A stretch of DNA of 64,000 bases from a virus. The notes below the pieces were generated by a model. It was not told the DNA's origin, searched no databases, and was given only the letters and a program-made list of their open reading frames with translations. Shown one piece after another: positions 8,297-27,263 of the stretch (its first letter is position 1; each line of letters starts with the position of its first letter). The DNA lies in IMG/VR virus record IMGVR_UViG_3300047310_000715. One strand, given 5' to 3'. The position numbers were made by a program, and so were the translations under genes.

Positions 8297-8767
8297 ATGT
8301 CTAGACAACACCAGATCCCGACCACGTTCCAAGAGGCCAACCGGATCCGCGCTGCCCTCGCGACAGCGCTCCAACGACTCCTAGCCGCGACCGACCACCG
8401 CGAGCTGCCGGCGCTCCAGCAGGAGGCGCGGGAACTCATCGACCTCGTCCCGTACTGCCTGATGCAGATCCACGAGGAGCAGCGCCGGCTCGAACGAGAA
8501 CCACCACCGCGGTTCGTCGTTGGGAGTTCCGAAACGATCCAGATCTCAGCGGTAGCCGCGAAGCTGATTGCTGAGCAGACGTTAGAGCGATTCGGTATCG
8601 CTCAGCTACCCGATAAGTTTTTCGAGGAACTCGCGATCGCGTCGGACCGGTTCCTAGGCGGCGCTGTGCTCGAGGTGTTCCGCGAGCAAGCAGGACTCGG
8701 CGACGATGCGGTCCCGTCGCGGGTGCCGGACGAGATCCCGAACGTAACGAAGGGGGGCCGGAAGTGA
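8297..8767 (+). CDS. Hypothetical protein
   Basis: Start codon overlaps a TGTCTAGACA box; GTGA overlap downstream. Confidence 0.65.
   Translation: MSRQHQIPTTFQEANRIRAALATALQRLLAATDHRELPALQQEARELIDLVPYCLMQIHEEQRRLEREPPPRFVVGSSETIQISAVAAKLIAEQTLERFGIAQLPDKFFEELAIASDRFLGGAVLEVFREQAGLGDDAVPSRVPDEIPNVTKGGRK
8298..8307. promoter_or_regulatory. Single TGTCTAGACA box over the start codon of 8297
   Basis: Exact 10-bp palindrome identical to those in the promoter cassettes. Confidence 0.55.
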
Positions 8768-12599: not shown

Positions 12600-12848
12600 A
12601 TGGAAGTCGCCCGCCCCAAAGCAGGAGACGCCGGACTCGAAGGCGCCGCAGCGCCAGAGACGGTTCCGGCACGATCTGTTCAGCCCCGGGAACACTTCAG
12701 AGGAGACGACATCGTGATCCCGTTTTGGCTCGTGCTCGCGTTGCTCGTTCGCCGCGTCTATCAGGAACCCGACCACCGGATCCTCGCGTGGCCACCCCAG
12801 TACCGCTGGTACGACCGGATCGTTCACCGGTTGTTCTTCGAGGTCTAG
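12600..12848 (+). CDS. Single-TM hypothetical protein
   Basis: IVIPFWLVLALLV hydrophobic segment. Confidence 0.5.
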   Translation: MEVARPKAGDAGLEGAAAPETVPARSVQPREHFRGDDIVIPFWLVLALLVRRVYQEPDHRILAWPPQYRWYDRIVHRLFFEV

Positions 12849-12892
12849 ACAAGACCGCGCCATCCCGAAACATGATGCCGGAGGCTTTCAGG

Positions 12893-15037: not shown

Positions 15038-15217
15038 GCCCGGAACCCCCCGAGGGGCAGGTCACCAAACCGGCCTAGCGCGTATCGCCGACGGGCCCGG
15101 CTAGACCGGCCGCCAAGAGGGAAGTCCCGTAGGAAGCCGTTTAGGCGGCCTCGCGGAGGCAGCGGGCCTCGTGCTGCTCGATTGGATGCGGCGCGGCGTG
15201 TAGGCGCGGGTGGATGT

Positions 15218-15263
15218 CGAATTGTCTAGACACGATGTCTAGACACGATAGAGTCTACTCATG
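15218..15263 (+). promoter_or_regulatory. Promoter/operator cassette 1 (leaderless)
   Basis: Boxes 15223-32 and 15236-45; TAGACA-N16-TAGAGT-N6-ATG(15261). Confidence 0.8.
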
Positions 15264-15521
15264 AGCAACGCAACCGATAACCGAATCAAGGTTCTTGAGG
15301 GTTACTACGCGGAGATCGATGTCGCGATCGCGCTCCAGGAGCGGGTCCTCGACACCTACGGTGGGATGCTCTCGTACTGTTCCGACGGCGAAGGCTCGGA
15401 CGGTATCGTCGCGGGACTCGATCGGGCCGAAGGCGAGATCGCCCAGCTCGTCGCCCAGCTCGTTCGGGACCGCGCCGAGATCGACCGACTGTGGAACGAA
15501 GACGTGGAGGGACTCCGATGA
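15261..15521 (+). CDS. Hypothetical protein, first gene of cassette 1 operon
   Basis: ATG at predicted +1. Confidence 0.65.
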   Translation: MSNATDNRIKVLEGYYAEIDVAIALQERVLDTYGGMLSYCSDGEGSDGIVAGLDRAEGEIAQLVAQLVRDRAEIDRLWNEDVEGLR

Positions 15522-15697
15522 TCGATTCGAACCAGATGCGGGATCACTCGAATTGGACCGCGATCGAGGTCGCGTGGTGGGACGGGAAGGCGTGGCGACG
15601 AAAGGTCGTCCGGACCGAGAAGGCCCTCGAGCGGCTCGTCGAGAAACTAAACGAAGCGGGTGTGTCGGACATTAGGACGCGGGAGGCGGACGTATGA
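15518..15697 (+). CDS. Hypothetical protein
   Basis: GGAGG RBS; ATGA overlaps. Confidence 0.65.
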   Translation: MIDSNQMRDHSNWTAIEVAWWDGKAWRRKVVRTEKALERLVEKLNEAGVSDIRTREADV

Positions 15698-15891
15698 ACC
15701 AGAACGAGAAACCCAAGTGTGTTTTGATCGGCCAAGACGGTAACGTTTTCAATGTTGTCGGGCGTGTGAGTGCCGCTTTACGAAAGGCGGGACGCCGCGA
15801 CCTCGCGACCGAGTTCACGAGTCGAGCGCTCTCATCGTCGTCCTACGACGCGGTTCTGGCGTTGTGCTCCGAATACGTCGAGGTGTCGTGA
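15694..15891 (+). CDS. Hypothetical protein
   Basis: GGAGG RBS; KPKCVLIGQDGNVFNVVG globular motif. Confidence 0.7.
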   Translation: MNQNEKPKCVLIGQDGNVFNVVGRVSAALRKAGRRDLATEFTSRALSSSSYDAVLALCSEYVEVS

Positions 15892-16178
15892 TGAACGAGT
15901 TCGAAACCCAGGAGATGCGGAACCGAGTCTCGCTCGTCGTGCTGGCCGCGAACCGGCTCCGGGAGGTTCAGGAGGCGACGTTTGGAGAGCCAACGTGGCG
16001 TTACGGGCTCGACGAATTCGAGCTCCGGATCCAGTTCCTCGTCGACCACGTCGTATACGTGGTCCGGATCGCGGGCCTCGAGGAACGCGCCAGTTCGCCC
16101 GACGCCGCGATCGAGCAGCTTCTGCTGAGGATCTCGGCCGTGACCACGAACACGCTTTCGCTCGATCGAATCCGATAG
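15891..16178 (+). CDS. Hypothetical protein
   Basis: TGATG coupling. Confidence 0.65.
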   Translation: MNEFETQEMRNRVSLVVLAANRLREVQEATFGEPTWRYGLDEFELRIQFLVDHVVYVVRIAGLEERASSPDAAIEQLLLRISAVTTNTLSLDRIR

Positions 16179-16213
16179 AGTCAAAAAACGTTTAACGAAA
16201 GGTGGAGGCCAAG

Positions 16214-17200
16214 ATGAGTCACGAAGTTGAATCGATGTTTTACGTGGGCGAGACGCCCTGGCACGGGCTCGGGGTTCAGCTCGAGAGCGCCCCGACGACC
16301 CGCGAGGCGATCGTGGCGGCGGGTCTTGATTGGGAGGTCGGCCAGAAGGAACTCTGGACGGTTCAGAGTAATCCGGACGTGTTCGATTCGAATCTATATG
16401 CGGACCAAAAGGTCCCGGCGCTCGCCAACTACCGAACCACGGACGGCCGAATCCTCGGGGTCGTGGGGCCCGGCACGCACCCGCTCCAGAACCGCGACGC
16501 GTTCGCGTTCTTCGATCCCTTCCTCGCCTCCGGTGATGCCGTTCTCGAGACCGCGGGGTCACTCCGGGATGGCGAACGGATCTGGGCGCTCGCCCGCATC
16601 AACCGCGACCCGTCGGTCGTGGTGCCGGGCGACGAGGTCCTGAAGTACCTACTGCTCTCGAACAGCCACGACGGGAAGGTCGCGGTTAGGGTCGGGTTCA
16701 CGCCCATCCGGGTTGTATGTGCCAATACACTCGCGCTCGCGCACGGCGCCGGCGACGCGCACAAGACGCTCCTGAAGCTCCACCACACCCGGAAGGTGAA
16801 GGAAGCGGTCGTGGCGGCCCGCGACGCGATCAACCTCGCGGACCGAACCTTCGAGGCGACGGCGGAGCGGTATCGGTTCCTTGCGAGCCGACAGATCGAC
16901 CGACCGTCCCTCGAGCTGCTGGTCCGCCGGGTTCTCTCGCCGGCGCCCGGTCAAGAACTCCCGGGGGCCTCCAAGATCACGCTCCCGAAGGTCGTCCGGC
17001 TCTTCGAGCAAGGTCGCGGCAACCAACTCCCGGGAGTCGCCGGCACCTACTGGGCCGCCTACAACGCCCTGACCGAGTACCTCGCGTACGGACGCGGGAA
17101 AGACCGTTCGCGTCGTCTCGACAACCTCTGGTTCGGCAGCGCCGCGAATCAAAACGACCGTGCCCTTACGATCGCGCTCGAGATGGCGAAGGCCGCCTGA
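16214..17200 (+). CDS. DUF932 (phage/plasmid-like) protein
   Basis: MSHEVESMF..PWHGLG, ETAGSL..G, NSHDG, PIRVVCANTL, WAAYNALTEY signatures. Confidence 0.9.
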   Translation: MSHEVESMFYVGETPWHGLGVQLESAPTTREAIVAAGLDWEVGQKELWTVQSNPDVFDSNLYADQKVPALANYRTTDGRILGVVGPGTHPLQNRDAFAFFDPFLASGDAVLETAGSLRDGERIWALARINRDPSVVVPGDEVLKYLLLSNSHDGKVAVRVGFTPIRVVCANTLALAHGAGDAHKTLLKLHHTRKVKEAVVAARDAINLADRTFEATAERYRFLASRQIDRPSLELLVRRVLSPAPGQELPGASKITLPKVVRLFEQGRGNQLPGVAGTYWAAYNALTEYLAYGRGKDRSRRLDNLWFGSAANQNDRALTIALEMAKAA

Positions 17201-17400
17201 TGGAACGCTGGGACGTAAAGCGCGAGGGACAAGAGGGGTCCTTCGCGCTCACGAATCATCAGGCTGATGCGGAGTTGCTCGTGGAGCGCCTGAACCGTAC
17301 GGTCGCGAGCGCCGTTTTGTCGGCCAAGTTCTACGCGCGCCGCAGGACCGCGGTCGAGCTGCTCCGACAGATCGTAGAGATCGGCCGAGGTGGAAAGTGA
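17200..17400 (+). CDS. Hypothetical protein
   Basis: TGATG coupling. Confidence 0.6.
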   Translation: MERWDVKREGQEGSFALTNHQADAELLVERLNRTVASAVLSAKFYARRRTAVELLRQIVEIGRGGK

Positions 17401-17624
17401 AGACCCACATTCCGGTCCGGGTTCCGTTCGGCACGACGACGATCCTGACGTACTGCGGACGGGTTATGCCGGTCGTACTGTGTATCGACAGAACGCGGGA
17501 CTGCATGGAAGATGCGACCTGCCGAGCCTGCCGACGATCGGACGACCGGCGCGTGATCGAGGCGCACAACCGAGATCGCGCCGCCGCGAAGGCGGCCGGC
17601 AAACCGTTTCCGGAGGACCAGTGA
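17397..17624 (+). CDS. Small Cys/His protein
   Basis: GTGA overlaps; H..CG..C..CRAC. Confidence 0.6.
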   Translation: MKTHIPVRVPFGTTTILTYCGRVMPVVLCIDRTRDCMEDATCRACRRSDDRRVIEAHNRDRAAAKAAGKPFPEDQ

Positions 17625-17935
17625 AAGACGATTCCGACTACTCGCGAGCGCTCGCGCTCCTGATGACCGACCAGGCCCGGATCGCGCGCGAAGCCGGATA
17701 TCCGGTTGGTTGTAGTCAGGTATGCTGGTGGGGCTCGATGTGCCCGCACGGCGGTCGGCTCTTGCTCGGTCCGAACGTATACGGGCGTCCGAACCGTAGC
17801 GGCTGGGCGAAGATCACCGAGGCGTGGAAGACCGCGATTCGTTCGCGCGGCGGCGTGCTCGCGGTCGCCCACACCGAGTTTAGGGATGAAGACATCATCT
17901 ACGGGTCGACCGACCAAGAGCCAAAAGGTTCGTAA
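17621..17935 (+). CDS. Hypothetical protein
   Basis: GGAGG RBS; TAATG coupling to sigma gene. Confidence 0.6.
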   Translation: MKDDSDYSRALALLMTDQARIAREAGYPVGCSQVCWWGSMCPHGGRLLLGPNVYGRPNRSGWAKITEAWKTAIRSRGGVLAVAHTEFRDEDIIYGSTDQEPKGS

Positions 17936-18762
17936 TGGAAAACACACGGCGCTACCTGTACGGGCCGACCGCCCCGCTGACGCGCGAGCAGGAGCAGGAA
18001 CTCTTCAGGAAACTAAACCAGCGGGATAGGAGTGCGCGCGACGAGCTCGTTCGACGCCACATTTGGGTCGCGTCCCTGACGGCTCGCCGGTACCGGTTCT
18101 TCGGGATCCCGGTCGACGACCTCGTCCAGCACGCGGTCGAGGGAATCCTGATCGCGCTCGAGTCGTTCGACCCGGCCCGCGGGATCCGGTTCTCGACCTA
18201 CGCCGGAACCGCCTGCCGCTCGAAGGTACAGGATGCAGTCTTCCGACTTCACCGGTGCGTCCGGATCGGCCAGAGCGCCCGGGAGCGGGCCGCCCTTCGA
18301 TGGTGGCGGAAGACTAAGAGCCAGGTCCCGGACGAGATGGCCCGCGAGGTCGGGATGCCGATCGGGAGGGCTAGGGCGCTCCTGCCGCTGCTCGCGACCC
18401 AGTCGATCTCAACCGAGGGCCCGGCACGGCGTGGTCTCGATGGCGTGACGTTCGGCGACTGCCTCGAGAACCCGTCCGGGAGCCCCGAGGACGCGCTGGG
18501 GGATCAGGAACGGCTCCAGCTAGGCCGGGAGGCCATCGGGCGCTTCCGCAGGTCGCTCGGGAAGCGGGACCGGGCGATCTTCGACGCTCGTTGCCTCGCG
18601 GAGGACCCGCCAACACTCCAGGAGCTCGCCGAACAGATGGGGTTATCGCGGGAACGAATCCGGCAGATCGAGGTTCAGCTCCGGTGTAGGCTCCGGGAAG
18701 CTGTCTTGGAGGCGACGAATTGTCTAGACATCGTGTCTAGACACGCTAGTATCGGATCATGA
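17935..18762 (+). CDS. Sigma70-family (RpoH-like) RNA polymerase sigma factor
   Basis: Region 2 DDLVQHAVEGILIALESFDPARGIRFSTYA; region 4 TLQELAEQMGLSRERIRQIE. Confidence 0.9.
   Translation: MENTRRYLYGPTAPLTREQEQELFRKLNQRDRSARDELVRRHIWVASLTARRYRFFGIPVDDLVQHAVEGILIALESFDPARGIRFSTYAGTACRSKVQDAVFRLHRCVRIGQSARERAALRWWRKTKSQVPDEMAREVGMPIGRARALLPLLATQSISTEGPARRGLDGVTFGDCLENPSGSPEDALGDQERLQLGREAIGRFRRSLGKRDRAIFDARCLAEDPPTLQELAEQMGLSRERIRQIEVQLRCRLREAVLEATNCLDIVSRHASIGS
18716..18761 (+). promoter_or_regulatory. Promoter/operator cassette 2 (leaderless)
   Basis: Boxes 18721-30 and 18734-43; TAGACA-N16-TAGTAT-N6-ATG(18759). Confidence 0.85.
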
Positions 18763-19061
18763 CCGAAGACACTATCGAGAAACGAATCAAGGCGTTCGAG
18801 GCGGCTCGCCGGAAGGCTTCGCGCCTCATTCACGCGGTCGCGGACGGCGCGGACCCGAAGCCGCTCTACAGGGCCGTCGAGGCTGCCTACCGGGCCGGTA
18901 ACCGACTCGTCGGGCACGAGCCTTCCGAGGTTCGGGACTTCCGCTGGGCCCAGATGAGTGCGATCCAGTCCCGGATCGGCTGGGCGATTCAACAGGGCGC
19001 GGTAGCGCGTCAGCTCGCTCGTAACGCGGAACTTCGCGAGATTCTCGGGAGGGCCTCGTGA
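18759..19061 (+). CDS. Hypothetical protein, first gene of cassette 2 operon
   Basis: ATG at predicted +1. Confidence 0.65.
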   Translation: MTEDTIEKRIKAFEAARRKASRLIHAVADGADPKPLYRAVEAAYRAGNRLVGHEPSEVRDFRWAQMSAIQSRIGWAIQQGAVARQLARNAELREILGRAS

Positions 19062-19327
19062 GGCTCGCGGACCGCCCCTACCGACTCGTCGTGAATCCGG
19101 TTCCGGCCTACGGGTTCGCGTTCGACCTTCGGGTCGAGTCGGTCCACCAGGCGAAGGAAGCGCTCGTACGCTGGCAGACCGAACGCGGGATCGGTCCCGC
19201 CGACGTCCGGCGCGGCCGCGGCGACTACACCGGGCACGGCGACGTCCTGGACCGCGAAGGGTGTTTGGTCGCCCGGGTCAGCTACGACGGGCGAGTTCGG
19301 TTCCACCGACCCCGGAGGTCCGCGTGA
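19058..19327 (+). CDS. Hypothetical protein
   Basis: GGAGG RBS; G..YTG.G.V.D..G..VARVSYDGRV motif. Confidence 0.65.
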   Translation: MRLADRPYRLVVNPVPAYGFAFDLRVESVHQAKEALVRWQTERGIGPADVRRGRGDYTGHGDVLDREGCLVARVSYDGRVRFHRPRRSA

Positions 19328-19479
19328 TCCCGCGGAAGCTCGACTGGGCGCTCTGGGGTCAACTCGGGGGCTTTACCCCGTACCGACAGCTGATGGCCGA
19401 ACACGAGTGGCGTCGCCGGCAGGTCGAGGGCGCGTGGGTCGAGCAGCGTGGCGGTATCTCGTTCCCGAGGTTCCGATGA
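19324..19479 (+). CDS. Small hypothetical protein
   Basis: GGAGG RBS; overlaps at both ends. Confidence 0.55.
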   Translation: MIPRKLDWALWGQLGGFTPYRQLMAEHEWRRRQVEGAWVEQRGGISFPRFR

Positions 19480-19697
19480 CGGCGCGTCTTCTCGCCCAAC
19501 TCGGGTGGGTCTTCAGCTGCGACGCTGAGGCGATTCGGGACGACTACGCGTTCCCGCGGAAGGTCCTGACGGACCACGACATCGAGCAGGCCGAGCACCT
19601 CGAGCGGACCGCTAACGAGATCTTCGACCGCGTCGCCGCCGCGGACCCCGAGCAGGGGACCGGAACCGACTACTGCTTCAACCGGGAGGGAACGTGA
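19476..19697 (+). CDS. Hypothetical protein
   Basis: ATGA/GTGA overlaps. Confidence 0.6.
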   Translation: MTARLLAQLGWVFSCDAEAIRDDYAFPRKVLTDHDIEQAEHLERTANEIFDRVAAADPEQGTGTDYCFNREGT

Positions 19698-19978
19698 TCG
19701 TTGTCGTTTCGGTCCTCGAGGACGTCCTGCTCGTCGTGACGGACCGCGAGAACGATCCGCGGGGACGGTACGTGACGAAGGGCGGTCGCTATGCTGGGTC
19801 GTTCGCCGCCGGCGACGAGTGCGTGCTCCTCCACGACGGCGAGGTGGTGCTCTCGCCGAGGGAAGCGATGGCGTGCCGGTTCGTGCTCCGGAACGCGCTT
19901 GGGTTCCTCAGCGTCGCGCGTGGAGCCGCTGAGGCGGGAGCGAATCTAGTCGACCACGAGCTCCGGAAACCGAACTGA
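19694..19978 (+). CDS. Hypothetical protein
   Basis: GGAGG RBS. Confidence 0.6.
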   Translation: MIVVVSVLEDVLLVVTDRENDPRGRYVTKGGRYAGSFAAGDECVLLHDGEVVLSPREAMACRFVLRNALGFLSVARGAAEAGANLVDHELRKPN

Positions 19979-20116
19979 GTTGTCCCCAAGAGGGGTGTTG
20001 CGCATCTCGCGCAACAGGGCGCCATAGACAACTAAGGCGTTGGGGCCGCGCCTAGATTCGACCGGGTTAACCCACCTCCCGGAACGAATGAAGGTGTGCA
20101 GAACATCGGCCCTGCT

Positions 20117-20476
20117 TTACCCGACGACGGTCCAGCGGATCCGGGGGAACTCGCGGACGAGTGCCGCGACGAGCGCGCGACCGCCGGGCGTGACGGTCCG
20201 GACCCAGACGGCCCGCGGGCGTGTCTTCCGGAGCAGGTACCGCCAGAGCTCCGCGGCCGCTCCCCTGCGGCGTTCGGTGCTCGCGACCCACGTGCCGGCC
20301 GCGCAGAGCTGTCCGGTGCGGTCGAACTCGTACCGGAGGAACCCAACCGTCTTGCCTTGGTGTCGGCGTACGACCGCGAACTGAACCGGGTCGAGCTGCG
20401 GGAAGTCGCCCGAAGCTTCGGGCGGTAGGATGTTCCGTGGGACGTCGTGGTCGGGACCGACGAGCCGGGTCTGCAT
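20117..20476 (-). CDS. GNAT-family acetyltransferase
   Basis: VGFLRY..LCAAGTWVASTERRRGAAAELW matches acetyl-CoA binding motif A (V..R/QxxGxA). Confidence 0.7.
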   Translation of the reverse strand: MQTRLVGPDHDVPRNILPPEASGDFPQLDPVQFAVVRRHQGKTVGFLRYEFDRTGQLCAAGTWVASTERRRGAAAELWRYLLRKTRPRAVWVRTVTPGGRALVAALVREFPRIRWTVVG

Positions 20477-20521
20477 CCCTACTGGGTAGCGGGCCGCGCC
20501 CGGGCCCCGCAACCCGGTCGG

Positions 20522-20713
20522 TCAAAACCGCGTAACGATTCGGGCGAGCCGGGCGGCATCGGCCGCACGCCGGCGCTCATCTCGCTTTAGGTCCGCTTCC
20601 TGGCGCTGAACCGCATACCGAAGATGAAGCTCGTACCCCCGAACCTTCTGGCGTCGGAACAGCCAAGCGGCCGCCGGGCACGGGGCTTCGCTGGTGCATC
20701 CACACGGCAGCAT
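20522..20713 (-). CDS. Small hypothetical protein
   Basis: ATG 2 nt after upstream stop; PCGC..PC. Confidence 0.55.
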   Translation of the reverse strand: MLPCGCTSEAPCPAAAWLFRRQKVRGYELHLRYAVQRQEADLKRDERRRAADAARLARIVTRF

Positions 20714-20715
20714 CG

Positions 20716-21003
20716 TTACGGCTTGGCTCCCAGCAGGAGCGCCCGGATCACTTCCGCTTCCGCGGCGTCGACGTACCGCTCGTTCTCGCAATACCGGCAT
20801 GGGTTACAGGACGGGCACGGGACCCGCGTCACCTCCTCGTCGAGTTCGAATGGCGCTTGGCCGTTTTCGACCATCCAACGGCGCCGGACCTCCTGGTCGA
20901 CCAGACAAGCCCCACCGCAGAGCCCGCAGGCGCGCTTCGTGTATCCCCGCGGGTCGTGCTCCTCGCCGCTCGCGAGGCACTTCGGGCAGATCGCGATTCC
21001 CAT
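20716..21003 (-). CDS. Multi-CxxC zinc-finger protein
   Basis: CPKC, CGLCGG, CPSC, CRYC. Confidence 0.7.
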   Translation of the reverse strand: MGIAICPKCLASGEEHDPRGYTKRACGLCGGACLVDQEVRRRWMVENGQAPFELDEEVTRVPCPSCNPCRYCENERYVDAAEAEVIRALLLGAKP

Positions 21004-21016
21004 CCCGCACCCTACC

Positions 21017-21036
21017 ACCGCGCCGCGCGGCGCGGT
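21017..21036. repeat. 20-bp palindrome copy 5 (between divergent starts)
   Basis: Exact match. Confidence 0.95.
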
Positions 21037-21060
21037 CATCCGGGGCGCCATCCCGGGGCA

Positions 21061-21372
21061 ATGGAACAGAACCCGTGCTGCCGAGCGTTCGTCGGAACTC
21101 TAAAGACGGAAGATCTTTACGCTGCCGTTTATCTCGCGTGCCCGACGTGCGGAACGACGATCAAAGATCGAATCCAAACGGCAGCGCGCCCCTCGCTTGC
21201 GCCGCGGGACGCCTGGCATAACGCCGGAGCCGCGATCTCGTTTGTGAGTCTGCTTTCACCACCACCTCCCCCGAGCTGGGCGAGCTCTCGCGCGGCGGCG
21301 CTTCATCACCGAACGCTCGGGAAGGTTCGGAGGCGACAGCGCCGCCTTCACACGAACTCGAGGGCATTCTGA
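21061..21372 (+). CDS. Hypothetical protein carrying LAPRDAWHN motif
   Basis: ATG 21061; TGATG coupling to next gene; CPTC. Confidence 0.45.
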   Translation: MEQNPCCRAFVGTLKTEDLYAAVYLACPTCGTTIKDRIQTAARPSLAPRDAWHNAGAAISFVSLLSPPPPPSWASSRAAALHHRTLGKVRRRQRRLHTNSRAF

Positions 21373-21704
21373 TGACGTTCGAGGTCAGCGGGATCGGCCG
21401 CCGGGTCGGGGCGATCGGAATCTTCCACGCCTTTTCCTGTACCGTGGAGGCGCAGGACGACGCGGAAGCTCGCCTCAACGTGTACGGGGGGTACGAGCAC
21501 ATCACGGAGATGAAGGTAACGCCGGCGCTGGAACGCCAGACGATCGTCGTGTCGCCGAAGGAACTCGTCCGGTGCTGCTGGTGCGGGGCCGAGGAATCCC
21601 GGCAGGTCGCGTTCTCGATCGGGTGGCTCGAACACACGGACGAGAACGGGCGAGCGTACGGATGCCCGAACCACCCTCAGCGTCTTCTGCCGGCCCGCCG
21701 ATGA
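21372..21704 (+). CDS. Hypothetical protein
   Basis: GAGGG RBS; CCWC..GCP. Confidence 0.6.
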   Translation: MTFEVSGIGRRVGAIGIFHAFSCTVEAQDDAEARLNVYGGYEHITEMKVTPALERQTIVVSPKELVRCCWCGAEESRQVAFSIGWLEHTDENGRAYGCPNHPQRLLPARR

Positions 21705-22087
21705 GCCGACAAGCACGTAGGAGACGCATCGCGAAGCAGGTTGAGTATTGTGGCCTTACGTACACGGGGCCCTTCCGGAACACGTGGCTCGAACCCGGTC
21801 CCGACACGATGCCGTATGGGGCCCGGAAGCGCCTCATGATGTTGATCGTCCAGGCCAAGATTCTCGCGAAGCTTCTGCCGCTGAAGGGGACCCAAACCAT
21901 TCCCGACTATCGGGCGGCTGCGCGCGAAGCGTCCGCCGAGTCGATCCGCGAGACGACCCAGACGCTCAACTACCGGTGGCTCATGCGGGATCCGAAGGAT
22001 TCCCGTCGCCGTCGAGGATCGAAGGGTCGTCCCGAAGCGCTTCCGCGATTGCCTCTGCCCCGCGTGCCTGTGCCTCGGCCGCGCTGA
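21701..22087 (+). CDS. Basic hypothetical protein
   Basis: ATGA overlap; 3' end overlaps the endolysin 3' end. Confidence 0.5.
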   Translation: MSRQARRRRIAKQVEYCGLTYTGPFRNTWLEPGPDTMPYGARKRLMMLIVQAKILAKLLPLKGTQTIPDYRAAAREASAESIRETTQTLNYRWLMRDPKDSRRRRGSKGRPEALPRLPLPRVPVPRPR

Positions 22088-22712
22088 CGTCGACGGGCGC
22101 ATCCGGAACATCGACGCGAGGATTCTGCGCCGCCCGCGACTGAACTTCTCGGATCGTTCGGCAGACGTCGCCTCGGGTGACGAACCCGGTATCGCCGGAG
22201 TCGAACCCGGCGTTCTGCCGGTAGATGGCCTTTGAGCGATCCCGCTCCGCCGGCGTAACGGTGTCGTGGTTGTTCAGCTTCGACCCATCGCGGGCCGCCA
22301 CGACCCACGAATCTTCCTGTCCGATCGCGGCCGGGTAGAAGACCCCCAGGTACGTGTTCTCGAGCGAGTCCATCCGGCCGCGGTACGAGCCGAGGTATCG
22401 CTCGACGAACGGGAGCTGCTCCAGGACCGTCATCTGGGCGAGCCCGTAGGGGGACGTGCCGAGCAGCTTCGCGGTCGAGGGCATGAACTGGATCAGCCCG
22501 ACGGCCCCCTGATACGGAACGCCGCGCTTCTGCGCGTCGATGACGGCCCACCGGTTCCGCTGACTCGGGCTGAAGGTCCCGGCGGTTTCGAACGAGACGA
22601 CGCATGCGAGCCAATCCGGCTGTATCGAGAGTTGGTCGGCGGTCCCGCAGAACCCCCGTAGTTCGTCCGGCGTTAGGTGCTCGATCCCGGGGGCCCCGCA
22701 GATAGTTCGCAT
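21981..22712 (-). CDS. Endolysin / lytic transglycosylase (SLT-like)
   Basis: WLACVVSFETAGTFSP (catalytic Glu), GAVGLIQFMPSTA, EQLPFVERY; GGAGG RBS on minus strand. Confidence 0.85.
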   Translation of the reverse strand: MRTICGAPGIEHLTPDELRGFCGTADQLSIQPDWLACVVSFETAGTFSPSQRNRWAVIDAQKRGVPYQGAVGLIQFMPSTAKLLGTSPYGLAQMTVLEQLPFVERYLGSYRGRMDSLENTYLGVFYPAAIGQEDSWVVAARDGSKLNNHDTVTPAERDRSKAIYRQNAGFDSGDTGFVTRGDVCRTIREVQSRAAQNPRVDVPDAPVDVSAAEAQARGAEAIAEALRDDPSILDGDGNPSDPA

Positions 22713-22757
22713 GACCGGATCCTCCCCCGGTCCCCCAGGTAGGTCAACGGAGGCTGT

Positions 22758-22804
22758 CGAATTGTCTAGACACCGTGTCTAGACACGCTAGTATGAGGTT
22801 CATG
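22758..22804 (+). promoter_or_regulatory. Promoter/operator cassette 3 (leaderless)
   Basis: Boxes 22763-72 and 22776-85; TAGACA-N16-TAGTAT-N7-ATG(22802). Confidence 0.85.
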
Positions 22805-23125
22805 AAGACGACGAATTGTTCGTGTGGATGTTCGGCTCCCCATATCATCTTTTCTCGCCGAACGGCTGATAACGTGCTCGTCCAGGGCTGGTCGGACGGG
22901 TACCTGACGACCACGATTATCGGCCAGGTCGTTGCCCGCTCGTTGCCCACGAATCTACTTTGGATTCTCGCCGACGAGATCGGACTATATGAGAAGTCGG
23001 AACTCCGCTCCCTAGTTAAGGGAGCTCGGAAAGCTCTCGATAAGCACGTCCGAGAGCCCCATCGCACGCGCCTATCCGACCTACCGCGGCTCGTTCGTGC
23101 CTATGCACCGGCGGTGGTCTCGTGA
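22802..23125 (+). CDS. Hypothetical protein, first gene of cassette 3 operon
   Basis: ATG at predicted +1; CSCGC. Confidence 0.65.
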   Translation: MKTTNCSCGCSAPHIIFSRRTADNVLVQGWSDGYLTTTIIGQVVARSLPTNLLWILADEIGLYEKSELRSLVKGARKALDKHVREPHRTRLSDLPRLVRAYAPAVVS

Positions 23126-23808
23126 AAACGACGGTAGACGAATCGGGGCGAACGACCTGGCACTTCTCGAAGCAGGAGCTCGTCGCGCTCCTCGCGTTCA
23201 TGTCGACGGATGTTACGCGCCCCGGGATATCGATCCTGGTGCTCGACCAGAAGACGGGTCGCTGCTGGGCTACGGACGGGCACCGCGGCGCGATCCTGAA
23301 GGGGGAGCGGGTCGACCACGACCGCGCGATCGAGCGCCCCGTCGAGGGCGTTAAGCGCGAGACCGTCGAGAGCGCGATCAAGCATGCGGCTCCGAAGGAC
23401 GAGATCCGGATCACGGGGCCCGGTTCCGCGTCCGAGATCGCGAAGTGCCGCGTCGAGGTGATGGAGCCCATCTCGCCCGGATCGAACTTCTGCCGCGCCT
23501 CCTACGAGGCGTTCCTGTCGGACGAAGCGCCGAACCATCTCGACGCGGTCGTACCGGAACGGCGCGACCCGAAGCACAAGGGGGGCGCGACGGCCTGCTT
23601 CAACGGTCCGTACCTGGCGGACCTCGCGCTTGTGACGAAGGCGTGCCCGCCGACGATCATTAAACGTTCCGACCGGGGGACCGATAAACTCTACCCGGGA
23701 GTCGAGATCCAACCGCCCGCGAGCGATCTGGATCCGCTCCTCGGGACGGTCCGGTGTCCCGCGAATGGGTCCGAATGGTCGATCGTCGTCATGCCGATGC
23801 GGATGTAG
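23122..23808 (+). CDS. DNA polymerase III beta-clamp-like protein (short)
   Basis: FMSTDVTRPGI..WATDGHRGAI and FNGPYLADL resemble DnaN motifs; only 228 aa. Confidence 0.6.
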   Translation: MKTTVDESGRTTWHFSKQELVALLAFMSTDVTRPGISILVLDQKTGRCWATDGHRGAILKGERVDHDRAIERPVEGVKRETVESAIKHAAPKDEIRITGPGSASEIAKCRVEVMEPISPGSNFCRASYEAFLSDEAPNHLDAVVPERRDPKHKGGATACFNGPYLADLALVTKACPPTIIKRSDRGTDKLYPGVEIQPPASDLDPLLGTVRCPANGSEWSIVVMPMRM

Positions 23809-23866
23809 GCGCAAGTTTTGCGGAAGAAAAGTACGGTTGCTGTGAACCAAAAAAGGAGAGAGAACA

Positions 23867-24118
23867 ATGCCTAAACCGACGGTAGGGTTGTTGATTGCAC
23901 TCGCACGCCTAATCGAGCTCGAAACGGGTCGGAAGCCCGAAGCGCTCTTGGTCGGCCATCTCGTGATGCATGATGTCTGGCGGGAGCTCCTTCCGACGAT
24001 CCAGGAGTCCCAACCGGGCGCCCGGATCGACGTAACCGACACCGTCCACCTCGGCGGGACTGCGATCCGGTGGGGCAGTCATCTTGAGCTGAACACGGTC
24101 CAATTCAAGATTCGTTAG
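23867..24118 (+). CDS. Hypothetical protein
   Basis: AAAGGAG RBS. Confidence 0.65.
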   Translation: MPKPTVGLLIALARLIELETGRKPEALLVGHLVMHDVWRELLPTIQESQPGARIDVTDTVHLGGTAIRWGSHLELNTVQFKIR

Positions 24119-24127
24119 GGGGAGATG

Positions 24128-24173
24128 CGAATTGTCTAGACACGGTGTCTAGACACGCTAGTGTTGGATCATG
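24128..24173 (+). promoter_or_regulatory. Promoter/operator cassette 4 (leaderless)
   Basis: Boxes 24133-42 and 24146-55; TAGACA-N16-TAGTGT-N6-ATG(24171). Confidence 0.85.
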
Positions 24174-24404
24174 AAGACGATGACGACGGCAGCCAAAACG
24201 ACGGTTCAGAATCCCAACCTCTACGTGGTCCGCTCCTGTAACTTCTCGTGGCACGAGCCGATCGAAACCGCTTCCTACGAGGAGGCCCTGACGGCTGCTC
24301 GCGGTCGCGGGTTCGAGGCTCGGATCGACCGCGCTGGGACGCTCGTCGCGACCTGGAGCCCGCTCTACGGGACCCACACGTACTCGCGCGAGCTCGCCCG
24401 ATGA
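24171..24404 (+). CDS. Hypothetical protein, first gene of cassette 4 operon
   Basis: ATG at predicted +1. Confidence 0.65.
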   Translation: MKTMTTAAKTTVQNPNLYVVRSCNFSWHEPIETASYEEALTAARGRGFEARIDRAGTLVATWSPLYGTHTYSRELAR

Positions 24405-24673
24405 GGGCCGCGTTCCCGCCCCGTAGGGCTTCCGAGCCGACCCGAACGATGGGGGGCGAGCTCCCGGGCGGCATCGAGCTCGAAGTTCGCTGGTGGGCCG
24501 GCTCCGGCCGGGTAGAGGTCGATCAGAATGTTGCGGGCGAGTGGGTTGGGTTCGCGGTCGGCTGCTGGGACTACGAGAGCGACCGGGTCATCTGGTCCCG
24601 GCACGAAGGGTGCTCCCCTACCCGTATCGCGGGCGCCGTCACCGATATGATCCGGATCGAGGCGCAGTCGTGA
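24401..24673 (+). CDS. Hypothetical protein
   Basis: ATGA/GTGA overlaps. Confidence 0.6.
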   Translation: MRAAFPPRRASEPTRTMGGELPGGIELEVRWWAGSGRVEVDQNVAGEWVGFAVGCWDYESDRVIWSRHEGCSPTRIAGAVTDMIRIEAQS

Positions 24674-25158
24674 GCGCGTTCCCTACCGGGAAGGACATCG
24701 CTCACCTCCTCGGGGTCGAGACCGGCATCGCGTCGTCTATCTCGTGGGCGTTCGACTGCATGGGGGTCGCGGAAAAAGAGATCGCGCGCGCGAAGCGGGC
24801 GCACCCGAAACGAGCCGATGCGATCCACGGGGCGTTCCGGATCCTCTACCCGGGAATGCTGTCTGAGTTCCGGAACGAGCGCCTGTACCGGCACCACGTT
24901 CAAGAGCTCCTCGACCGCGTAGCGCGCGATGAAGATCTCAAGCCTGGGACGACCGCCGAGTGCCTCGCTAGCCTGTCGAAAACGAGCCTAGTGGCCCCGC
25001 TCCGGGCCGACCCGACGAACCTCGCGTACCGGTTGTTTCAGCAGGTACTGGGGCGCTCCATCGCCGGCGAGACCATTCGGGAGTCGTTCCCGGGAGCGCT
25101 CGACGAACTCGAGCAGGATATGCGGCGGAAGCTGTCGAGCGAAAGGGATCCGGCGTGA
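24670..25158 (+). CDS. Hypothetical protein
   Basis: GTGA overlaps; helical composition. Confidence 0.65.
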   Translation: MSAFPTGKDIAHLLGVETGIASSISWAFDCMGVAEKEIARAKRAHPKRADAIHGAFRILYPGMLSEFRNERLYRHHVQELLDRVARDEDLKPGTTAECLASLSKTSLVAPLRADPTNLAYRLFQQVLGRSIAGETIRESFPGALDELEQDMRRKLSSERDPA

Positions 25159-25481
25159 TCGAACGACGCGCCCACCTGTACCGGTGCATGTTGCGGGACT
25201 GGCGCGCGGGCCGCGCGTTCTGGGACCAGCGTGGGTTCTACCGGATCTTCGCGCTCGTCCGGGGGACCGACGGAGTCGTCCGGAAGTCGAGCTCGGCCCG
25301 GAAGGCACCTTGGTCGGACCTCGCGCTCGAGTTGTTCCCGGGGTCATCCGGGGGACTTCACGCGGCGGCCGAGCTCGAGTACCCGCTGACTCGTAGGACC
25401 GCATTCGGACGCCTTCACGCGCTCGACCCGGTTGCGTCAAAACTGCTGTGTGAGATCGCGAAAGAGGAACTCGATGTGTGA
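25155..25481 (+). CDS. Hypothetical protein
   Basis: GTGA overlap. Confidence 0.55.
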   Translation: MIERRAHLYRCMLRDWRAGRAFWDQRGFYRIFALVRGTDGVVRKSSSARKAPWSDLALELFPGSSGGLHAAAELEYPLTRRTAFGRLHALDPVASKLLCEIAKEELDV

Positions 25482-25677
25482 AGACGAATCCTACCGGGTT
25501 ATCGGGACGCACCACCGAGAGGGAAGCCGGAACGTGACGCTGACCCGACAGGGTGGGTTCGTTGACCTCGCGGTCTCACAGCTCCGCCGGATCGGCTACC
25601 GCCGGATCCTCGTGAGGCCAGCGGGCGCAATGTCGTCCTTTCCCCCTCCCGCGATGCCGCAAGAAAGCGTTAAAGGT

Positions 25678-25687
25678 TGTCTAGACA
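25678..25687. promoter_or_regulatory. Single TGTCTAGACA box upstream of 25706 and the RHH gene
   Basis: Exact 10-bp palindrome preceded by T, as in the cassettes. Confidence 0.6.
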
Positions 25688-25705
25688 GCGCCGTTCCTAA
25701 GGGGC

Positions 25706-25909
25706 ATGGAACGAACGCAGGAGGGACGGAAGATGGAAACGGAGTTGATCGCGGGGTTGCAGGAGGAGTGGAAGCTCGCGATGCGGGCGGGGCGAGCCGA
25801 GGACGCGGGCCGGATCGCGGCTCGGATCTGGGAGATCCGAAGATCGTCGGCGAAAGTCCGGGCGGCTCGTACGACGACCCGCCTAGCTCTCGCGTCCGTC
25901 CTTCGTTAG
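25706..25909 (+). CDS. Small helical protein
   Basis: AAGGGG RBS; alternative start ATG 25733 after GGAGGG. Confidence 0.55.
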   Translation: MERTQEGRKMETELIAGLQEEWKLAMRAGRAEDAGRIAARIWEIRRSSAKVRAARTTTRLALASVLR

Positions 25910-25972
25910 TACCCCGCGCCCTCTGGTACTGGAGGGGTGTACGGGAGGGTTGAAAGCCCGTATAGACATCCC

Positions 25973-26158
25973 ATGAGAACCAAAAAACAGAAGTCCGTTC
26001 CGCCGGACCCGACTCCGCCGACTCCCGAGAGCTCGAAGATGAGAGGGTTCCGGTTCCGGCATTCCGAGTATGAGACCTGGCGGGTCCGGGCCCTTCAGGA
26101 AGGCATCGGGATCACGGATCTGATCCGGAAGGCGATGTCGTCCTACCTTTCTTCTTAA
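25973..26158 (+). CDS. Ribbon-helix-helix (CopG/Arc/MetJ-like) DNA-binding protein
   Basis: RGFRF (strand) - HSEYETWRVRALQEG (helix A) - ITDLIRKAMSSYL (helix B). Confidence 0.7.
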   Translation: MRTKKQKSVPPDPTPPTPESSKMRGFRFRHSEYETWRVRALQEGIGITDLIRKAMSSYLSS

Positions 26159-26204
26159 CCGCGCCCACTCTCGTCAAAAAAGAAAGCGCTTACGGCGCTT
26201 AAGA

Positions 26205-26247
26205 TTGTCTAGACAACGTCGTCTAGACAAGTATGATGAGAGACATG
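26205..26247 (+). promoter_or_regulatory. Promoter/operator cassette 5 (leaderless, variant)
   Basis: Boxes 26206-15 and 26220-29 (CGTCTAGACA); TAGACA-N16-TATGAT-N7-ATG(26245). Confidence 0.8.
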
Positions 26248-26832
26248 AAGAAGATGATTCTGGTGGCGACGATGATGCTGGCGAACGCGTGCGCCTACGG
26301 GGCCGGCCCGGTCCCGACGGTCGACCCGGCGCCCCAGGCCGGGCAGGTAGTCGCGAGGGCCGCGGACGTCATCGTGGAGGCGGACGAGACCTTTTTTCAA
26401 CCGGTCCAGGAAGCCGCGACCGAGTGGTCGGCCGCGACCGGGATGTCGTTCCTCGTCGTCTCGGTTCCGGCGGGGTCGGAGTGGCACGACGGGACCTGGC
26501 GGGTCGAGTCGGAAGCGGTAGCGCCCCACTTGGCCGGCACGGGCTGGCGAGCCGAGAACCCGGAGCCCCTGACGGCCCACATCGGGATCGACCCCGCGAT
26601 CGTGGCGGGGTTCGGGTTCACGGAGGACGAGCTCCGCCGGGCGATGCTTCACGAGTTCGGCCACGCGCTCGGGCTCCGGTTCGCCGGTGGCGACCTTCAC
26701 TACGAGGGCCCGCTCCCGAGCGTGATGTATAGCGGGCTCCGGGACGGCCCGAACTGCTCGCTTCACCTCGGGACCCCCGAGCTCGACGCGTGGGACGTAG
26801 CGTCACCGGCCTTCCCCCGAACGGCTCGCTAA
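26245..26832 (+). CDS. Putative lipoprotein zinc metalloprotease (matrixin/M10-like)
   Basis: MKK + hydrophobic + ANAC lipobox-like; AMLHEFGHALGL (HExxHxxGxxH-like) and SVMY Met-turn. Confidence 0.8.
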   Translation: MKKMILVATMMLANACAYGAGPVPTVDPAPQAGQVVARAADVIVEADETFFQPVQEAATEWSAATGMSFLVVSVPAGSEWHDGTWRVESEAVAPHLAGTGWRAENPEPLTAHIGIDPAIVAGFGFTEDELRRAMLHEFGHALGLRFAGGDLHYEGPLPSVMYSGLRDGPNCSLHLGTPELDAWDVASPAFPRTAR

Positions 26833-26879
26833 CCTGGGGATAACTTGTAGGGGTCCGGTGGGGGCGTCATAGACCCCTC

Positions 26880-27263
26880 GTGGCGAAGCTGAAGCCGGTC
26901 TTCTGGTTCGGGTTCCGCGACGACCGCCACCGCGCGTGGCGGGTCTACTTCGCGACCCCCGAGATAGTCGCCGGCTTCGGTCGTAACGCTGACGGGATCG
27001 ACGACCACGCGTTCGTCGAGTTCACCGCCCGGCGGATCTACCTGAATCCCCGGGCTCCCCGTGGGACCTGGGAAACGACGCTCCTCCACGAACTCGGGCA
27101 CGTTGCGCTCGAGGACACCGGGTTCGAATACAAGGAGCAGTTCATCGAATGTCACGCCGTTCATCAGCTACCGATCCTAAGGTCCGTCGGGTTCCGGTTC
27201 CCAAGTCCTCCGCGGGCAGCGTTCACGCTCCGGAGGCGGAAGTCTCCGCGACCCCGTTCCTAG
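26880..27263 (+). CDS. Zincin-like HExxH protein
   Basis: IYLNP..TTLLHELGHVAL..EQFIE. Confidence 0.65.
   Translation: MAKLKPVFWFGFRDDRHRAWRVYFATPEIVAGFGRNADGIDDHAFVEFTARRIYLNPRAPRGTWETTLLHELGHVALEDTGFEYKEQFIECHAVHQLPILRSVGFRFPSPPRAAFTLRRRKSPRPRS

Follow-up and report, generated by a model that had tools for sequence, protein, structure and literature searches.

In the immI region of phage P22, the ribbon-helix-helix (RHH) proteins Arc and Mnt act at the promoter Pant, where a dimer of dimers bound to an operator overlapping a sigma-70 promoter limits early lytic expression. P22 has one such operator, and its subsites are approximately 11 bp apart. Control of several promoters by one RHH protein is described for Reg576 of the Bacillus plasmid p576, which binds each operator as two dimers and represses four promoters, one of them its own (PMC6294495). 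Repression has also been demonstrated for the GntR-type regulator BguR of Streptococcus pneumoniae, whose proven operator has the core TGTCTAGACA and overlaps the -35 element (PMC3585215). Here, tandem boxes of the palindrome TGTCTAGACA were analyzed in a 64,000-nucleotide stretch of viral DNA (IMG/VR virus record IMGVR_UViG_3300047310_000715, hereafter the window), where they form part of promoter-like cassettes. On balance, these cassettes are probably composite promoter-operators with an RHH repressor, which would give a self-limiting early burst of expression. The phage to which the window belongs is new; it encodes portal, capsid and baseplate proteins, has a GC content of 64-65%, and carries nearly all genes on the plus strand. 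The whole phage genome was stitched by walking metagenome contigs into a circular map of 96,299 bp, a length in agreement with that of contigs of 96.4-96.7 kb.

Cassettes 1-4 have the layout CGAAT-TGTCTAGACA-N3-TGTCTAGACA-CG(A/C)-TAG(A/T)(G/A)T-N6/7-ATG, as read directly from the sequence. A sequence-only reading of the window had described four near-identical cassettes and a variant, with TAGACA, 16 bp, TAnnnT, 6-7 nt and ATG in all five, and the letters match this description exactly. Its list of sites was incomplete: the five cassettes stand, and single boxes at 8298, 12842 and 25678 and a sixth tandem cassette have to be added. The sixth was found by a genome-wide census of tandem boxes; it retains the -35 element, the 16-bp spacer and the -10 element, and has a leader of approximately 30 nt with a Shine-Dalgarno sequence. 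The six cassettes are as follows.

15218-15263, plus strand: cassette 1; CGAAT, boxes at 15223-15232 and 15236-15245 with spacer CGA, the TAGACA of box 1 being the -35 element; then CGA, -10 element TAGAGT at 15249-15254, CTACTC, and ATG at 15261.
18716-18761, plus strand: cassette 2; boxes at 18721 and 18734, spacer TCG, -10 element TAGTAT at 18747-18752, ATG at 18759.
22758-22804, plus strand: cassette 3; boxes at 22763 and 22776, spacer CCG, -10 element TAGTAT at 22789-22794, 7 nt, ATG at 22802.
24128-24173, plus strand: cassette 4; boxes at 24133 and 24146, spacer CGG, -10 element TAGTGT at 24159-24164, ATG at 24171.
26203-26247, plus strand: cassette 5 (variant); TGTCTAGACA at 26206, ACGT, CGTCTAGACA at 26220, AG, TATGAT at 26232-26237, GAGAGAC, ATG at 26245.
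Locus L065 6697-6719 (tandem pair), outside the window: cassette 6, between the dCMP deaminase and UvrD helicase genes; TGTCTAGACA-CGT-TGTCTAGACA-CGC-TACCCT, then approximately 30 nt holding AGGAGACGAGG, then ATG (L065 6697-6766).

The IMG/VR locus L002 760-782 is the reverse complement of cassette 6 and comes from a fragment of the same phage.

The boxes are identical at 20 of 20 positions in cassettes 1-4 and 6. The three nucleotides between them differ in each copy (CGA, TCG, CCG, CGG, CGT), and the discriminator varies. Box 2 is invariant within a promoter spacer that is unconstrained by RNA polymerase; therefore, something else reads it, as would be expected of an operator. The invariance of box 2 thus argues for the claim of the sequence-only reading that a protein on the paired boxes would shut the promoters, and a predicted Arc-like RHH protein encoded at 25973-26158 is a plausible repressor. 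In cassette 5, the box period is 14 bp and box 2 (CGTCTAGACA) has one mismatch; the additional base pair between the boxes is compensated by a gap of 2 nt, where the other cassettes have 3 nt, from box 2 to the -10 element, and the total stays 16 bp. The TAGACA-16 bp-TAnnnT spacing is kept in all six cassettes, so that the sigma70-type geometry claimed for five copies extends to six, including the compensated one.

The -35 element TAGACA agrees with five of the six consensus positions, the spacer is 16 bp, and A2 and T6 of the -10 element are present in six of the six copies. Scored against the sigma-70 consensus (TTGACA and TATAAT, spacer 16-18 bp, scan threshold 9/12), four copies reach 9-10/12, and cassettes 4 and 6 reach 8/12. 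A scan of the 14-28 kb region with this consensus gave only four sites, all of them cassettes, and the stitched genome contains five plus-strand matches of at least 9/12, four of which are cassettes. A TAnnnT hexamer 5-8 nt upstream of the start codon was found for 6 of the 113 predicted genes (1.3 expected), and five of these six are cassette genes.

The start codon lies 7-8 nt past the -10 element in cassettes 1-5 and is ATG in all five, versus 69% ATG genome-wide. In cassettes 1, 2 and 4, the TAG of the -10 element is an in-frame stop located 12 nt (four codons) before the ATG. Cassettes 1-5 leave no room for a Shine-Dalgarno sequence and have no alternative start, as an N-terminal extension or downstream, that is preceded by one; in cassette 3, no Shine-Dalgarno sequence is within reach of the ATG at 22802. 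The ATG at 26245 of cassette 5 is the start of a secreted HExxH metalloprotease, whose signal peptide begins exactly there. The leaderless character of the mRNAs of cassettes 1-5, which had also been proposed earlier, is supported by this sequence logic, and we infer the +1 position itself. Since cassette 6 keeps the geometry yet has a leader with a Shine-Dalgarno sequence, the conserved unit appears to be a promoter-operator and not a translation signal, and the leaderless arrangement appears frequent but not obligatory. The view that the regulon is confined to five promoters of the 15-27 kb accessory region has to be abandoned, as cassette 6 lies outside it and drives the UvrD helicase gene with a normal leader.

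One reading frame is open through every cassette with a 13-bp period and closes at a TGA overlapping the downstream ATG (TCATGA is conserved). In cassette 1 (15215-15263) it forms a 16-codon mini-ORF (open reading frame) from the ATG at 15215, and in cassette 2 (18716-18762) it is the tail of a sigma factor gene; translation could be coupled in this way on read-through transcripts. Another mini-ORF, MSRH(R/D/G)V followed by a stop, with GGAGG 7-8 nt before the TTG of CGAATTG, was dismissed as a coincidence, as it is not present in cassettes 5 and 6 and the GGAGG of cassette 2 is sigma coding sequence. Paralogy of the first genes of cassettes 1 and 2 was considered as well; their products have an N-terminal RIK motif in common, but BLASTP finds no similarity between them.

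Sequences matching TGTCTAGACA with at most one mismatch occur 13 times in the window versus 0.60 expected, and none of 100 shuffles reached 13. TGTCTAGACA is the second commonest 10-bp palindrome in this genome of 64% GC, though its own GC content is 40%. The stitched 96.3-kb genome contains six box pairs, located at promoters, and four single boxes. Since isolated single boxes exist, the 10-bp palindrome is the recognition unit, and a unit of this length suits the RHH beta-ribbon better than a helix-turn-helix dimer, which would need a longer site. Single and degenerate boxes of the window, and the small ORF situated among several of them, are listed below.

25973-26158, plus strand: 61-aa ORF of a putative Arc-like RHH protein, candidate box-binding repressor; an alternative start at 26039 gives a 39-aa core.
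25678-25687: single exact box, 55 nt upstream of the gene 25733-25909; it shares its intergenic block with the RHH gene.
25959-25968: degenerate box CGTATAGACA with two mismatches; it overlaps TATAGA, 7 nt ahead of the start codon of the RHH gene.
8298-8307: single exact box at the start of a 156-aa ORF, whose ATG (8297) it overlaps.
12842-12851: single box, GGTCTAGACA, which has one mismatch and lies where a small ORF ends.

The RHH ORF is the last gene of the cassette-4 operon and lies between the single box at 25678, the degenerate box at 25959, which is a possible autoregulatory site, and cassette 5. It matches the PHROG family "Arc-like repressor" (E = 2.6e-5). The AlphaFold model has a strand at residues 21-28 and helices at 30-43 and 47-59, i.e., a strand-helix-helix arrangement. 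The top Foldseek matches were NikA, ParG, PutA, CopG, omega and Arc, in a list that consists almost wholly of RHH proteins, with E-values of at least 0.74, none of which is significant, and the Atlas neighbors that have a named family all belong to RHH families. A homodimer was predicted with a score of 0.74 (best of three controls, 0.02), the interface being formed by the strand and both helices; among proteins of solved structure, 21 of the 30 that are pairs of one chain reached the mark used for dimers, as did none of the 23 that are single chains. Scans of nearly all phage proteins against Pfam, NCBIfam and PHROG found no GntR, TetR or XRE regulator. The 61-aa protein is the one candidate from the phage and the likeliest box binder. 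The 243-aa product of the divergent gene, which had also been considered as a repressor, was rejected, as it has a lysozyme-like domain found in baseplate-hub and lytic tail proteins.

An RpoH-type promoter-like motif, TTGAAA-N13-TCCCAT (25950-25976), overlaps the first ATG of the RHH ORF and has no second match in the genome (0.11 expected). Use of this motif would shift the start of the RHH protein to 26039 (39 aa) and place its synthesis under the phage sigma factor. A family of such promoters for the phage sigma factor was rejected, as there is only one genome match. On the minus strand, two canonical terminator-like hairpins with T-runs (26200-26184 and 26010-25991) are located just left of cassette 5, with no minus-strand gene nearby; they may end an antisense transcript or may be due to chance.

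Cassette 1 is the head of an operon that extends to the following gene.

17935-18762, plus strand: sigma-70-family factor of 275 aa with Pfam regions 2 and 4, encoded at the end of the cassette-1 operon.

The closest NCBIfam models of this factor are of the RpoH/RpoS type, matched far under their cut-offs, and no relatives of it were found in IMG/VR or in five related records. Its C-terminal 15 residues are encoded by cassette 2, which lies within the last 15 codons of the gene, and its TGA overlaps the next ATG (ATGA). A second sigma gene, encoding a weakly ECF-like (extracytoplasmic function-like) protein of 228 aa, is located outside the window (L062 20696-21382).

The proposal that the cassettes divide the region into operons stands only in part. 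Cassette 3 occupies the 89-bp gap between the minus-strand gene 21981-22712 and the plus-strand gene starting at 22802, and because this gap separates divergent genes, the plus-strand promoter must lie in the cassette. Cassette 4 is the head of the operon that ends with the RHH gene, and it begins 14 nt past a stop codon. Since neither cassette 2, inside the 3' end of the sigma gene, nor cassette 4 has a terminator before it, both appear to be internal or booster promoters and not boundaries of insulated operons. The minus-strand gene 21981-22712 encodes a lysozyme-like domain typical of baseplate-hub proteins, and ahead of it lies a candidate leftward promoter (22745-22710, minus strand), TTGACC-17 bp-GAGGAT-6 nt-ATG. 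The latter has leaderless geometry like that of the cassettes and is 17 bp from box 1 of cassette 3.

The sequence or computation gives the anatomy of the cassettes, the statistical excess of boxes, the pattern of constraint on them, and the predicted RHH fold and dimer, and the promoter-operator reading is well supported by sequence logic but unproven. In the mechanism that follows, we infer the transcription starts, the timing, the polymerase holoenzyme used and the identity of the box-binding protein; the sequence-only reading had likewise put forward immediate-early timing and initiation by host polymerase. The housekeeping holoenzyme of the host would recognize TAGACA in box 1 as the -35 element, with TAG(W)(R)T, TATGAT or TACCCT serving as the -10 element. 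Transcription would start 7-8 nt past the -10 element; in five units this position is the A of the ATG or the nucleotide preceding it, and in the sixth it would give a leader of approximately 30 nt. A small DNA-binding protein would occupy each 10-bp palindrome as one dimer, and two dimers on paired boxes would cover the -35 element and the spacer, excluding polymerase. On phage entry, host polymerase would fire all six promoters, and the cassette operons would deliver small function-unassigned proteins, a DUF932 protein, the phage sigma factor, UvrD, the secreted metalloprotease and the RHH protein. The latter would build up and close all six promoters, that of its own operon included. It is proposed that the 275-aa sigma factor of the cassette-1 operon takes over after this early shut-off, driving later classes. 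In its widest form, in which the whole early program consists of six copies of one promoter-operator, five of them leaderless, is self-terminating, is closed throughout by a 61-aa Arc-like protein and hands over to an RpoH-like sigma factor, the proposal is tentative and possible rather than probable.

If true, the compact and fully specified regulatory module, which combines a 45-bp promoter-operator with a 61-aa candidate repressor, would define the early regulon of this phage and reveal the timing by which a large lytic phage replaces host with phage sigma factors. High-GC hosts would gain from it an orthogonal pair of repressor and operator in which leaderless expression is built in. The nearest relatives of the exonuclease and the sigma factor hint at a Gram-negative host, and a leaderless phage-gene regulon would be unusual in such a host.

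Several findings weigh against the promoter-operator reading with the RHH protein as repressor. The -10 hexamers are weak (3-5 of 6 positions), the spacer is 16 bp rather than 17 bp, cassettes 4 and 6 are under the 9/12 scan threshold, and the four best cassette copies may share recent ancestry. Phage-encoded sigma factors could read the cassettes instead. The Pfam match of the RHH ORF (NikA-like) is sub-threshold (E = 0.055), its Foldseek E-values are not significant, and a search of 5.8 billion proteins found no homologue but itself. The centers of the Arc subsites are approximately 11 bp apart, and the distance of 13-14 bp seen here is longer. In addition, the same 23-bp pattern adjoins TetR-family genes and a cI-like gene in other genomes; therefore, the box alone does not identify its binder.

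This last point leads to the alternative in which the cassettes are promoter-operators whose boxes are bound by a host factor, either of the GntR/HutC type such as BguR and DasR or of the TetR/EthR type, with early transcription gated by the metabolic state of the host. BguR, of the GntR type, represses via AAAAATGTCTAGACAAATTT overlapping the -35 element (PMC3585215), four actinobacterial and soil loci have the exact pattern TGTCTAGACA-N3-TGTCTAGACA next to TetR-family (EthR_C) genes, and no GntR, TetR or XRE gene is present among the phage proteins scanned. On the other hand, the phage encodes an Arc-like protein of its own in the midst of the boxes, helix-turn-helix dimers usually need a longer site than a 10-bp palindrome that also occurs in isolated single copies, the boxes of the host loci are embedded in longer palindromes that are absent from the phage copies, and no candidate factor can be named. 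We consider this explanation unlikely as a whole, but a host factor stays a real rival for box binding. The four loci (L039, L042, L029 and L028) have the pattern beside TetR/EthR-type genes and inside longer palindromes. In an AT-rich IMG/VR phage (L001 9583-9620), TGTCTAGACA-N3-TGTCTAGACA lies beside a cI-like HTH_3 (helix-turn-helix) gene, with TAGACA-17 bp-TATCAT in a layout as here. In the exact-pattern scans, the sole viral match of similar GC content was L002; other matches, namely the AT-rich phage with the cI-like gene, the actinobacterial TetR loci, streptococci and eukaryote-like satellites, were set aside as unrelated.

It is quite unlikely that the cassettes are middle-class promoters read by a phage sigma factor (the 275-aa RpoH/RpoS-like or the ECF-like one), with the boxes as promoter or activator elements. 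Two sigma-like genes are present, the -10 hexamers have an unusual TAG in common, and the conservation of the cassettes far exceeds the need of a host promoter. Against this, the 275-aa sigma gene is downstream of cassette 1 and so needs earlier transcription, the hexamers fit the housekeeping consensus (-35, 5/6; -10, A2 and T6; 16-bp spacer), the sites of dimeric regulators, unlike those recognized by sigma factors, typically have perfect dyad symmetry, and the one RpoH-like promoter motif of the genome lies elsewhere, at 25950.

The least probable explanation, that the repeats are mainly nucleic-acid structures (for pausing, processing or stabilizing) or recombination substrates that shuffle gene modules like the PeSLs, repeats that combine a promoter with a terminator and occur in variable regions of T4-like phages (PMC2839356, PMC4122927), draws on a 10-bp stem with a 3-nt loop that boxes 1 and 2 are predicted to form in the read-through RNA of all five units (isolated stem about -13 kcal/mol in the centroid fold of cassette 4, whole units -15 to -21.6 kcal/mol), on the promoter and hairpin present in the cassettes, and on the small function-unassigned genes that the cassettes flank, but the U-tract is absent, the z-scores are modest (-1.5 to -3.1), the hairpin is outside the transcript if transcription starts at the ATG, isolated single boxes cannot make a hairpin, four soil populations showed no cassette-to-cassette joints or rearrangements, and the relatives lack the repeats. 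A hairpin role in pausing or processing may coexist with the operator role.

The phage was present in at least 24 soil and rhizosphere metagenome runs, and megablast of the window against 50,697 phage records gave no near match. The search for transcript evidence listed no RNA runs. It is an uncultured phage lineage with almost no annotated genes. Beyond the window, the genome encodes helicases, DnaB, a family-B DNA polymerase, a RecA-like protein, nucleotide-metabolism proteins and a ParB-like protein. The phage looks virulent, because no integrase is among the protein families found for it. Searches with the capsid protein found 22 IMG/VR loci of relatives, with an identity of up to 69%. A scan of the rest of the genome and of relatives had been suggested as a check; in the genome the census revealed the sixth cassette, and the TGTCTAGACA boxes were not found in the 22 capsid-relative loci, nor was the tandem cassette in the full records of two capsid relatives. 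According to contigs from four soil runs, the population is nearly clonal, the boxes have no informative variation, and the contigs break at repeats. In the soil population of run X21, 210 bp within 15701-15912, spanning the gene 15694-15891, are swapped for 13 other letters.

Among the neighboring genes, the segment 23122-23808 has a weak RusA-like resolvase match, and in 26245-27263 the secreted HExxH metalloprotease (26245) is followed by an IrrE/ImmA-like peptidase (26880). A different repeat is the perfect palindrome ACCGCGCCGCGCGGCGCGGT of 20 bp. The window contains ten exact copies of it, between 3428 and 55459, versus 0.9 expected, and the stitched genome contains 13; they are often located at gene ends or just ahead of a Shine-Dalgarno sequence and start codon. 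The closest relative, G001 (L071-L073; capsid 69% identical), contains six copies of ACCGCGCATCGATGCGCGGT, which has the arms of ACCGCGCCGCGCGGCGCGGT and a different center. Conservation of this variant argues that the element has a function, possibly as a GC hairpin or a protein site.

Compared with known systems, the cassettes of this phage would share with the stoperators of cluster A mycobacteriophages the presence of many repressor sites along the genome and their control of the early lytic program (PMC9283540, PMC6550527). Stoperators, however, are asymmetric sites of 13-14 bp, bound by a monomeric repressor, numerous, and block elongation (PMC9283540, PMC6550527), whereas the boxes here are perfect palindromes, paired and located at promoters, with six pairs and four singles in 96.3 kb; assignment to the stoperator system was rejected on these grounds. 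The PeSLs of T4-type phages are likewise short composite repeats of an early promoter and a stem-loop among small variable genes (PMC2839356, PMC4122927), but their stem-loop is a terminator ahead of the promoter and their cassettes mark indel junctions, whereas here the stem-loop would be the operator itself.

The likeness to BguR concerns the DNA site, as the TGTCTAGACA core is identical and overlaps the -35 hexamer as in the phage cassettes; BguR, however, is a host GntR regulator acting at a single site, while the phage boxes are paired and no GntR gene was found in the phage. The likeness to Arc of P22 concerns the protein, the only profile match of the RHH ORF above the threshold level being the PHROG "Arc-like repressor". 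In contrast to the single operator of P22, there are six operators here, with a period of 13-14 bp, perfect 10-bp dyads and five leaderless units.

That a small repressor shuts repeated early promoters is already well known, and the proposed circuit has the logic demonstrated by experiment for Reg576 (PMC6294495). The P22 Arc circuit has this logic as well. Reg576 differs in belonging to a plasmid and not a phage, in its heptamer TTATCCC versus a 10-bp palindrome here, in that leaderless transcripts are not reported for it, and in having no sequence homology to the phage RHH protein, whose binding to the boxes is proposed. In both cases, a small RHH repressor shuts, or in the phage would shut, several entry or "establishment" promoters, its own included (PMC6294495). 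The Reg576 operators consist of a dual motif bound cooperatively by two dimers, and their differing layouts give graded responses and transient expression after entry (PMC6294495).

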